Shown: in pieces, positions 56,326 through 60,060 of the stretch | Layout: each line of letters opens with the position of its first letter | Numbering within the stretch: position 1 is the first letter of the stretch | Source of the DNA: Eremomyces bilateralis CBS 781.70 | Lineage: Eukaryota | Length of the DNA: 64,000 bases | Direction: 5' to 3' (one strand) | NCBI GenBank assembly: GCA_010015585.1 | Contig: ML975150.1 | Notes under the pieces: model-generated | The model's input: only the letters and a program-made list of their open reading frames with translations | Database searches by the model: none | Told to the model about the DNA's origin: nothing | Made by a program: the position numbers and the translations under genes

Positions 56326-57731
56326 ACGGCCGGGACAACGATTCACGGTAGAGGGATAGGACCCATGGGGGCACGGAAATCAAAAGCTGGAGGGACGATG
56401 TTCAGAACGAGTGGCTGTGTTCACTACGCCATGGCAACGGTTGGAAGGTCACCTGCCCGAGAAGCACTCGAGGATATGACACGATTGACCAGCCACTATT
56501 GGCCTCGTGGCGTGGACGGACGCAACTAGATCCAAGAGCCGTCATGACGACAGGAGATTTGGGCGGGTTTCTCGCTATTCCGACCACTCCGCAAACAGCT
56601 CGCACGGCACCATCGAAACGAAGCCGAAGAATGCCTCACATGATCATTCAAGACAGATATTCCGATACTTCTAAAGGCTTACGCGATGCGTTTCCTTTTT
56701 CCGGCAATCTCCATCGGGAGCGCCTCGCGGACCGACTCGGCAACATCGACATTGCAACTCTCGGGGAACACGCCAAGGGAGAATGCTTCGGATCTGGAAA
56801 GCTCTTCGGTCTTCACGGAGGCAACGAGAGACATCGACCATGAATCACAATAAGCTGGAGAGCACTGGCACTACTTGGCAAGGTTGAATGTATATCAATG
56901 CCATAGTGTAGAGGACGATATCGGACGATCGGATATTCCTGTGCCGTCAATACGCACCATGAAGGTACTCAGATCCCGTCTGCCTTGCTGTGCCTTGCCA
57001 TTGCCATAAGTCATGGAATCCTGTTCTGCCAATCGACTATCAAACCGCACTAACCACTACTTGAACAAGCCAAGCCTAATTCGATGGACGTGCTTACTAT
57101 TCATTCATATCGTGATATCGGACAAAGACTCTCATTCGCTAATTTCCGGAGGCGTGAGAACCGGCAGTGCCCAGTGGGGATATCCAAATTGCAAGCTAGT
57201 GAGATAGTCACGTGCGGGTGCAGCACAGCCCACCCGCCCCGCGTCTGGGCAGCCCGGACTAAACTCCATTCGGCATCGACCGTCTTCATCATGGTTTCCA
57301 CAAGGCTCAGTATTGGGCGCTCGTACATTGTAGGGAGGCGCATCCCGGTCAAACATCACCACGTTCCTTCCGTTGGATCCGCATTCACAGCTTCATGGAG
57401 TGGCCTGACGACACCACAGTACATGCATCCAGTAACCGTTGGAGACGCTTCATCTATTAAGCTCCCTCCATCCGCCGTTCAACTTTCGCTTTCGCTCTGC
57501 ATTCATTCCTCAACCCGAAATCCTTCGATCGCTGTTGAGACTTATACGACATTGTTTGGAGTGAGCATTCTTCCACATCTCTCGAGGGCGTGAGCATTCA
57601 GCATTGCAGCACCAACTCACCTTGAAACAATAAAAGTGTCACACAAAGCCGCTTCCACTCGAAGCCTTCTCGCACCCACATCCGCATCGTCTCACCGACA
57701 ATCTTCCATTGAATCGTCAATTCCAGTAGTC

Positions 57732-58898
57732 ATGGCCTCCAACACTGGCAAAGGACGCGACGCCGGCGATTCGATCAACGGCGCTCCCGCCACTCGTGAA
57801 CCCGAGCCGCTCATCAAGGTGCAACCTCCGCGCCGTGAAGACCTACAGCCCTCGTACGCGCAGGACATCCATCCCGACACAGAGGATGCATCGGCACATG
57901 GCTGGTATGGTGGCATGGTCGACGCTTTCGGACAGGTTATTGGTACCCTGGGTGCCGTTCCGTGCTGCCCCTTCCCGAATCCGTATCGACCTGTCAACCA
58001 GGGCAACGTGGGCTTGGTGACCAAGTTCGGCCGATTCGCCAGGGCGGTTGATCCAGGTCTTGTTAAGGTCAATGTATTGAGCGAGAAGATCATTCAGGTG
58101 GACGTCAAGATTCAGATTGTCGGTATGTGTTTGCGATGCGAAGCTGGTTGATATGCCCAAAGCTGATTGAACCTACAGAGGTCCCGCAACAGGTCTGTAT
58201 GACCAAAGACAACGTCTCTCTCTACCTCACGTCCGTCATCTACTACCGTATCACTTCGCCTCACAAGGCCGCCTTCGGCATCAGCAACATCCGCCAAGCT
58301 CTCGTCGAACGCACACAAACCACGCTGCGTCACGTCGTCGGTGCTCGCCTGCTTCAAGACGTCATCGAACGCCGTGAGGAGATCGCGCAAGACATCCGCA
58401 GCATCGTCGAGGAAATCGCGGCCGGCTGGGGCGTGGACGTGGAAAGTATGCTCATCAAGGATCTGATTTTCAGCCAAGACCTCCAAGACTCGCTGTCCAT
58501 GGCGGCGCAGAGCAAGCGAACGGGAGAAGCCAAGGTCATCGCCGCGCGTGCGGAAGTCGAGAGCGCCAAGTTGATGAGGCAGGCCGCCGATATCTTGTCC
58601 AGCGCACCGGCCATGCAGATTCGATACCTCGAGGCCATGCAGCAGATGGCAAAATCTGCCAATAGATAAGTCCCTTCGCTTCCTCAACACACCCCTGCAT
58701 GCTAACTTTCTTTGTACTAAGGTGATCTTTTTGCCGTCCAGCAACCAAGGCGTCACGGAACAGATGACTCGCCTTGCCGATGGCCCTGAAGGGAGCAATT
58801 ATGGAGGTGGTGAAGGCAGCAGTGCCGCGCAGGAATATGGACATGGGAATGATGGGATGCAAAGGGCGATCAACTCGGCTGTCATTGAACGCATGTAG
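57732..58898 (+). CDS. Stomatin-family SPFH/band-7 protein; exons 57732-58122, 58179-58665, 58718-58898 (second intron AT-AC)
   Basis: VNQGNVGLVTKFG, EVPQQVCMTKDNVS, QTTLRHVVG, AMQIRYLEAMQQMAKSAN|SKVIFLP. Confidence 0.92.
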
Positions 58899-59418
58899 AG
58901 AAAGTTCTACAACTGCGATCGTTTGGCGGCTGCGGAAAGGGAATGGAGCTGGGAATCTGGGTTTCTTTCTGTTTTAATAATGTTTGGGCTGCTTCGGGAA
59001 ATTTGGTGTTCATATTTGGGGCACTCGTAGCGATGGGAATCGGGGAGACAGGACGCGGAGATTGATCTCGTTGTCGCCATTCCTCTCATCAGTCGTTTCA
59101 GATACCCAATTGCAACTCGGATTTTCGTTCGTCACACAAATCAGATCCTTTGCTTTCATGACATGCGTCTCAATTGACTAGATATCGCAGCCGTCGGCAC
59201 TTCTCTGGCGAAGCGTGATGGATATCGGCGCTTCGGTTCACATACACACAATGGACCTGCAGCATTGATTCATCTGGCGCTCAGACACGGATGCTTCGCC
59301 AGTTCATGTGCATTTCAACCAGCTACATAATGCATATTTTTCGTGAAAGCAGACCCGATGATCGCAGTAATGCCAGCCGTTCCACGCCCATGATGAAAGG
59401 AAATCCTTATCGAATCCT

Positions 59419-60060
59419 TTAGAACCCTGATCATCCGTTAATATTCCACCCATAAAATTCACGGGGGGCGGAAAACACTTACGCAACGCAGTGAAGAACC
59501 ACCGGTTCTTCCCACTCTGGTACCGCTCCTCCAACGTCTTCTTGATGTTCTTCTTTGCCTCCTCCCGTTGGCTCACCTCCTTGAACGTGTCGTTGTTGAC
59601 GGCGCCCTTCAGGCCCTCGAGGTCCAGGGTGTAACGGGTCGGCATCAGGTGGTTGTAGTTGATGACCTTGATGAACGGCTTGACCTTGGAGCGGCGGGTG
59701 ACGCGGGCAGCGGACATGCGGCGGGTGACTTTGGATGGGTAGCGCTCGATGCCGGCGACGAGGGCGTGCGGGAAGGGGTGGGACTTGTTGCCTGAGTCTT
59801 GGGGCTGGATGATCACGACCTGGAGGGCGCGCTGTTAGAACACTGATGGCTTCATCGTCTCGTTTCTGCGTTCATCGACTCTGGGGAATATTTCCCGGTC
59901 CGCGGGTTCGCACGGCGTCATGAGGGAGTGTTCGGTGCGTACCTTCTTGCCGGCATATCGTCCTCTTGTGACAATGGCCACACGGCCAACTTTCATGACT
60001 ATCGCACGGCGTTAGCAATTTTCCTCATGCAATCGATACATCGTCAAACTTACACTTCAT
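59419..60060 (-). CDS. RPL27: 60S ribosomal protein eL27; exons 60060-60054, 59998-59943, 59819-59483, 59426-59419
   Basis: Spliced [27 protein letters not shown]...[17 protein letters not shown]...[12 protein letters not shown]. Confidence 0.97.

Follow-up and report, generated by a model that had tools for sequence, protein, structure and literature searches.

How can a reading frame that runs into a stop codon in the last third of a gene yield a complete protein? The stomatin gene of Eremomyces bilateralis CBS 781.70 poses this problem. The gene is encoded on the plus strand at positions 57732-58898 of the window (the whole 64-kb stretch of DNA analysed here) and has three exons specifying a stomatin (SPFH/Band 7) protein. 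A preliminary description of the sequence had claimed that a 52-nt segment with AT...AC ends, which lies in this last third, is an intron needed to complete the gene. We find that the frame is restored when the segment is removed and that an RNA-like contig carries the corresponding 58665/58718 joint, so that the 52-nt AT...AC intron is confirmed as real and as cut exactly in RNA. Taken together, the evidence makes it highly probable that 58666-58717 is a constitutive spliceosomal intron in a dothideomycete stomatin gene, one of the rare AT-AC introns of the U2-type ("type II").

Organization and identity of the stomatin gene

Exon 1 (57732-58122, plus strand, as are all features of the gene) begins with the ATG at 57732 and ends one base into a Glu codon. 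Its translation corresponds to residues 1-130 of the public protein P0004, and its match to the Band_7 domain is weak. It is followed by intron 1 (58123-58178), an ordinary GT...AG intron of 56 nt (GTATGT...ACAG); an intron at this position with GT...AG ends is also found in 31 of 80 related loci, these being the best 80 of 217. Exon 2 (58179-58665) encodes the SPFH/Band 7 core together with the wall and cap helices, matches Pfam PF01145 with an E-value of 1.1e-23, is 85-95% identical to its orthologues, and ends in ...GCC AAT AG. Next comes the AT-AC intron (58666-58717; 52 nt), which carries an in-frame TAA at 58667-58669, and then exon 3 (58718-58898), which supplies the last base of a Ser codon, the residues KVIFLPS of the beta-barrel strand, and the tail, up to a TAG stop codon at 58896-58898.

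A search with the exon 2 protein returned 1518 longer relatives at E-values of at most 1e-20. The top match is 100% identical and belongs to Eremomyces bilateralis CBS 781.70 itself, where it is recorded as a "hypothetical protein" of 293 aa; the other relatives among the 120 matches listed are stomatin-family proteins, mostly from Dothideomycetes, with identities of 87-95%. The alignment of a close orthologue, P0005, with human stomatin chains has an E-value of 1e-36 and extends through ...NSTIVF. The Band_7 domain and the similarity to stomatin over the full length, including the C-terminal strand, place the product in the stomatin/SPFH family. Just downstream of the gene, on the minus strand, there is an open frame at 59304-59834, a putative ribosomal protein L27e-type gene.

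Reading frame across the AT-AC intron

The letters around the intron read ...GCC AAT AG|ATAAGTCC...CATGCTAACTTTCTTTGTAC|T AAG GTG ATC..., where the bars mark the boundaries 58665/58666 and 58717/58718. When the segment is left in place, the frame continues as AGA TAA and ends at the TAA at 58667-58669. When 58666-58717 is removed, a CDS of 1059 nt results, which encodes 352 amino acids, contains a single stop codon at its very end, and reads AKSAN-S-KVIFLPS...AINSAVIERM* from the junction onward. The nearest downstream AG (58720-58721, plus strand) had been said to lead to an immediate TGA, and direct reading of its product as AAT AGG TGA bears this out; no joint at this AG was present among the RNA-like contigs described below. 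Use of the next AG and retention of the intron would give the identical truncated product, a protein of 293 aa ending in ...QMAKSANR. Among the options examined (read-through, the 58666-58717 cut, and the next AG), only the 58666-58717 cut restores the frame. The junction cannot slide: the bases flanking each cut differ, with 0 shared letters on both sides.

We also examined how often the bare arrangement of signals occurs by chance, using the pattern ATAAGT-N25-55-CTAAY-N5-20-AC over the whole 64-kb window and 100 shuffles of it. The ATAAGT...CTAAY...AC pattern occurs 2 times in the window where 0.28 are expected, and 2 of the 100 shuffles reached 2 occurrences, so that the pattern by itself lends weak support. 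The weight for the AT-AC intron lies in the RNA joint and the conserved frame and not in the bare pattern. The second match of the form ATAAGT...CTAAC...AC lies at 57006-57066 on the plus strand, some 670 nt 5' of the ATG of the stomatin gene, in a region whose flanking frames do not look coding and which falls outside the 57600-59000 interval covered by the RNA comparison. It contains a TAA within its ATAAGT, and it may be a chance occurrence.

Conservation of the protein across the junction

The protein sequence that the splice creates is the one found in relatives. We examined the sequences of 22 relatives taken from the 120 listed matches, including all eight whose length is 291-307 aa. 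The motif A[NG]SK[VI]IF[LM]P spans the junction in all 22, and the tail continues to a C-terminal ...N..[VI]...[MIL] in 20 of them, the 2 others being partial records that end earlier. None of the 22, the eight of 291-307 aa included, has a stop at the AT-AC site. When the C-terminal end of the spliced product is set against ten orthologues in turn, 24-36 of the final 57-60 aligned positions are identical.

Among the sequences examined, a stop at the AT-AC site is found only in the organism's own public model, P0004, a protein of 293 aa whose end, ...AKSANR, is the unspliced read-through. The expectation that gene predictors would mis-annotate this gene has thus already come true. The final 60 residues are missing from the public model, and with them the strand that homology assigns to the beta-barrel of the oligomer; any annotation pipeline restricted to GT/GC-AG introns will truncate the protein in the same way.

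RNA and DNA support for the junction

Four of seven public runs were compared with the window over 57600-59000, in the form of assembled contigs and not of raw reads. One of them, carrying the same organism label but coming from another sample and another study than the DNA runs, was labelled as RNA by a guess; it behaves as RNA. Transcript use of the 58665/58718 junction was a check proposed from the outset, and a contig of this run has exactly that joint: it connects 58665 directly to 58718, skips the 52 nt, and thereby removes a segment with AT...AC ends. The word depth of this contig is 25029 and the junction is free of ambiguity ("both 0"). Removal in vivo at precisely the AT and AC ends is thus seen in one contig of the RNA-like run, the shorter side of which measures 26 letters. 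Splicing of intron 1 appears in the same run as loose ends at 58178. The depth bins are lower over both introns; these bins mix exon and intron bases, and contig depth cannot rank the parts of the gene.

The RNA-like run contains 1625 contigs on the 1.4-kb stretch 57600-59000, many of them 90-99% alike, and its word depths reach about 25000 over this stretch. So many near-alike contigs are what one would expect of a transcript sequenced to extreme depth, its error variants included. Pieces of the gene that are 100% identical, at a depth of 3-7, also occur in two runs labelled as other organisms and likewise taken for RNA by a guess, and in one such piece intron 1 has been spliced out; these pieces are probably carry-over between libraries of one year and provide no independent support.

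It could be asked whether the joint is an artefact, arising from a template switch by reverse transcriptase or from mis-assembly, in which case the gene would truly end in ...AKSANR. The joint does stand in a single contig with a short side, and this is what the artefact reading has in its favour. Reverse-transcriptase template switches need microhomology, whereas no letter is shared at this junction. Furthermore, the junction opens 59 more codons that match the orthologues, and exon 3 is still open and conserved. Given these points, we assign the artefact reading a very small probability.

The possibility that the letters themselves are wrong, with two assembly or sequencing errors disguising an ordinary GT-AG intron, had been named in advance as something that raw reads with GT...AG could reveal. 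We found no point in support of it. In a re-assembled DNA run the region lies in a single 53-kb contig with a word depth of 160, which has 0 differences from the window over 57600-59000 and shows the same AT...AC letters and no joint; the identity of this contig with the window indicates that neither A 58666 nor C 58717 is a slip of the assembly. This run may be the source of the assembly itself, and so does not count as independent of the window. In addition, two errors would have had to strike precisely both terminal guanines, and an explanation by wrong letters is therefore the least credible of all those weighed here.

Splice signals and the type of spliceosome

The 5' splice site of the intron, ATAAGT (58666-58671, plus strand), follows an exonic AG and agrees with the major-type consensus apart from the change of G1 to A. 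The branch-site motif, CTAAC, is located at 58702-58706 on the plus strand; its branch A (58705) stands 12 nt ahead of the intron's last base, and no other AC lies between the branch site and the terminal AC (58716-58717, plus strand). AT-AC introns are classed as U2-type or U12-type according to a rule based on the donor (given in a passage of PMC1557818), and the consensus donors are given in PMC5029451 as /ATAAGT for known U2-type AT-AC introns and /ATATCCTT for U12-type introns. The intron studied here has AT...AC ends and a donor that is of the major type except at +1 (/ATAAGT); compared with the U12-type consensus /ATATCCTT, its donor ATAAGTCC agrees at 3 of 8 positions. In a filamentous ascomycete the distance from the branch site to the 3' end peaks at 11-14 nt, and the 12-nt distance seen here falls inside that peak; a length of 52 nt together with a branch distance of 11-14 nt is typical for filamentous ascomycetes (excerpts of PMC4324775).

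Could the intron nevertheless be removed by a minor spliceosome? Its AT-AC ends would fit a U12-type intron, and so would the TAAC within the branch motif at 12 nt from the 3' end, by the U12 branch-site consensus. Against this stand the donor, which is ATAAGTCC and not the ATATCCTT given as consensus in PMC5029451, and the report that both the components and the introns of U12 splicing are missing in Pezizomycotina (PMC2846911, in part). A U12-type intron is accordingly very improbable. An Rfam scan, made of the 64-kb window alone, gave 0 matches and says nothing about minor-spliceosome snRNAs either way. With an ATAAGT donor, a CTAAC branch motif, no ATATCCTT, and membership of a subphylum reported to be devoid of U12 splicing, we infer that the major spliceosome removes the AT-AC intron. 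The preliminary description had likewise taken the signals to be of the major (U2) type, and the donor and the CTAAC motif 12 nt from the 3' end agree with it; its statement that Pezizomycotina are considered to lack the minor spliceosome accords with what PMC2846911 reports in the part concerned.

Two further statements in that description concerned the consequences of an A at the first intron position, and both hold in the portions of the literature consulted. In passages of PMC1557818 the change of G1 to A is rescued, less efficiently than wild type, by changing the last G to C, in yeast as well as in human, in agreement with the claim that an A...C terminal pair rescues the second step. 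In Aspergillus, an A1 donor (AUAAGU) blocks the second step in the telomerase RNA intron (PMC4299874, excerpts), as had been claimed for this donor.

On this basis the following course of events can be proposed. AG|AUAAGU would pair with U1 and U6 everywhere but at +1, and CUAAC would pair with U2, so that the retained pairing with U1, U6 and U2 would allow a normal first step. In the second step, a contact between A and C would take the place of the usual contact between the first and last guanines of the intron. Ligation would then occur at the first AC past the branch site (58716-58717), skipping the AG that lies four bases on; the proposed manner in which the AC is selected draws on the published mutants. 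Splicing of this kind would yield the complete protein of 352 aa, with the beta-strand by which the stomatin cage is closed.

Distribution and origin of the intron

The history of the intron was examined in the loci obtained from a scan of metagenome contigs, of which the best 80 of 217 confirmed loci were used. Those having intron 1, lying on a contig of at least 10 kb, or carrying an intron inside the stretch were classed as genomic (42 of 80, with one, L065, doubtful); the other 38, which look like spliced transcripts, were left out. Orthologues in Pezizomycotina had been proposed as a place to look for conserved AT...AC termini; among the best 80 of 217 loci, 0 of the 42 genomic relatives has an intron at the site of the window's AT-AC intron. 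No intron at all interrupts the S-K-V-I-F-L-P codons in 35 of the 42. In the remaining 7, GT-AG introns are located just downstream of the site, at +4 nt (L015), +6 nt (L074 and L077) or +7 nt (L071, L073, L075 and L078). Including that of the window, four intron positions therefore fall within 8 nt of coding sequence, a clustering that sliding of introns, or their independent gain at AG|GT sites, might explain.

The closest genomic relative among the best 80 loci, L001, is 81% identical in nucleotide sequence in exon 2 and reads AAT AGT AAG GTC without interruption. The absence of an intron at the site in the 42 genomic relatives implies that the AT-AC intron is not an old shared feature, and it appears to be confined to one lineage among the relatives sampled, a set that includes no close relative. 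Elsewhere in the C-terminal part, another GT-AG intron follows ...FMPSAPN in L046, some 36 nt beyond the site, and L015 has one directly after ...FLP; most lineages have no introns in this part of the gene, and some have many.

As to its origin, a blastn search with the intron against the 64-kb window and the 80 loci, in which an introner or repeat would be sought, yielded nothing longer than 17 nt; neither the window nor the loci contain a second copy of the intron. The tetranucleotide TAAG is present twice, at the 5' end of the intron (58667-58670) and at the start of exon 3 (58718-58721). This repeat, together with the +4, +6 and +7 introns of the relatives, raises the less likely possibility that the AT-AC intron arose through a 4-nt slide of a canonical intron, besides which a gain or a conversion from GT-AG would be candidate origins. 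Such a slide would need exactly a TAAG repeat, and the same repeat is also expected from a consensus donor combined with AGT-AAG codons. The locus thus poses an evolutionary puzzle, namely how an intron that is non-canonical at both ends came to fixation if either change alone ought to cut the protein short.

A structural boundary and the possibility of a switch

In human stomatin the cap helix passes into the beta-barrel at K263-N264, the strand runs from S265 to P270/P272, and the beta-barrel is central to the stomatin 16-mer (both from parts of PMC12344292). The fungal sequence ...AKSANSKVIF (P0005) aligns opposite ...AAEKNSTIVF of human stomatin, and the intron splits the Ser codon that is aligned with human S265, the start of the beta-barrel strand. 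With the cut at this Ser, a transcript that kept the intron would specify a protein lacking both barrel strand and tail. The alignment to human stomatin in this way upholds the earlier suggestion that truncation removes the C-terminal oligomerisation strand.

That suggestion was part of a broader one, according to which inefficient or regulated removal of the AT-AC intron could act as a switch, deciding whether full-length stomatin or a 293-aa form without the beta-barrel strand is made. Several features of the locus would suit such a role. Retention and use of the next AG converge on one product, ...QMAKSANR; the cut lies at the boundary between cap helix and beta-barrel (human K263-N264-S265 by alignment); and a terminal C rescues an A1 donor with an efficiency below that of the wild type (a passage of PMC1557818). 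Moreover, this is the last intron, so that a retained transcript would presumably have no exon junction downstream. However, nothing measured supports a switch: only the spliced joint was seen, and contigs give no ratios. In addition, 35 of 42 genomic loci are without any intron in the stretch, and a switch would thus be confined to one lineage. We consider it unlikely that the intron serves as a switch, and a more specific version, in which the AT-AC pair constitutes a lineage-specific checkpoint at a slow second step and every failure leads to the 293-aa ...AKSANR protein, slightly less likely again. If it were true, the 293-aa form could not close the 16-mer cage, and splicing would tune the balance between cage-forming and open stomatin. 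A constitutive U2-type AT-AC intron remains our preferred reading.

Comparison with known AT-AC introns

Searches of the literature for AT-AC together with stomatin found nothing, and searches for AT-AC with U2-type and fungi or Pezizomycotina turned up nothing on the stomatin gene in titles and the beginnings of abstracts, of papers whose supplements could list junctions. The class as such is well described. According to passages of PMC1557818, 24 U2-type AT-AC introns have been catalogued in five species, for example in human SCN4A and SCN5A. The stomatin intron resembles these animal introns in its AT...AC ends, its /ATAAGT donor and the absence of U12 motifs. The animal introns are conserved in orthologues, between human and puffer fish and, in TAF2, between human and fly (same passages), whereas the stomatin intron is absent from the 42 genomic relatives, is fungal, measures 52 nt, and has a strict CTAAC.

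A compensating pair of terminal changes has also been engineered: double mutants with G1 changed to A and the last G to C were made in yeast and in human pre-mRNAs (Parker and Siliciano 1993, as cited in parts of PMC5029451 and PMC1557818). The stomatin intron has the same compensating end pair as the yeast double mutants, likewise in a fungus which, by the literature on its clade, has no minor spliceosome, but it is natural and is required for a conserved protein. With the Aspergillus telomerase RNA AUA(A/C)GU intron it shares the AUAAGU donor and the subphylum. There, the block of the second step by A1 serves 3'-end formation (excerpts of PMC4299874); the stomatin intron, in contrast, ends in AC, and its second step is completed. 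It therefore offers a natural, RNA-supported A1/C(-1) compensating pair in a subphylum where A1 alone stalls splicing past the first step.

Among fungi, AT-AC ends account for 69 of 14305 RNA-seq junctions in Trichoderma longibrachiatum (PMC4324775), they are among the non-canonical sites of Fusarium graminearum (PMC3577648), and AT-AC introns were hypothesised earlier in xylanase genes of filamentous fungi (PMC1557818), each as stated in excerpts of these papers. These cases belong to the same intron class and the same fungal group as the stomatin intron; they are bulk counts or hypotheses, and the excerpts do not name the stomatin gene or site. In fungal annotations, AT-AC has been treated as a minor class (PMC7072748, in part). 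The nested AT-AC intron of RPL30 in Saccharomyces cerevisiae is likewise an AT-AC splice in an ascomycete without U12 machinery. This non-coding splice is found in 1-2% of transcripts and uses a donor that differs from /ATAAGT (for all of which see parts of PMC5029451), whereas the stomatin splice, with a consensus donor, yields the form that codes for the conserved protein. U2-type AT-AC introns are thus already known and rare, and the stomatin gene adds one clean example that leaves the known picture unchanged; its only unusual points are the lineage-restricted distribution and the place of the intron at a structural boundary of the protein.
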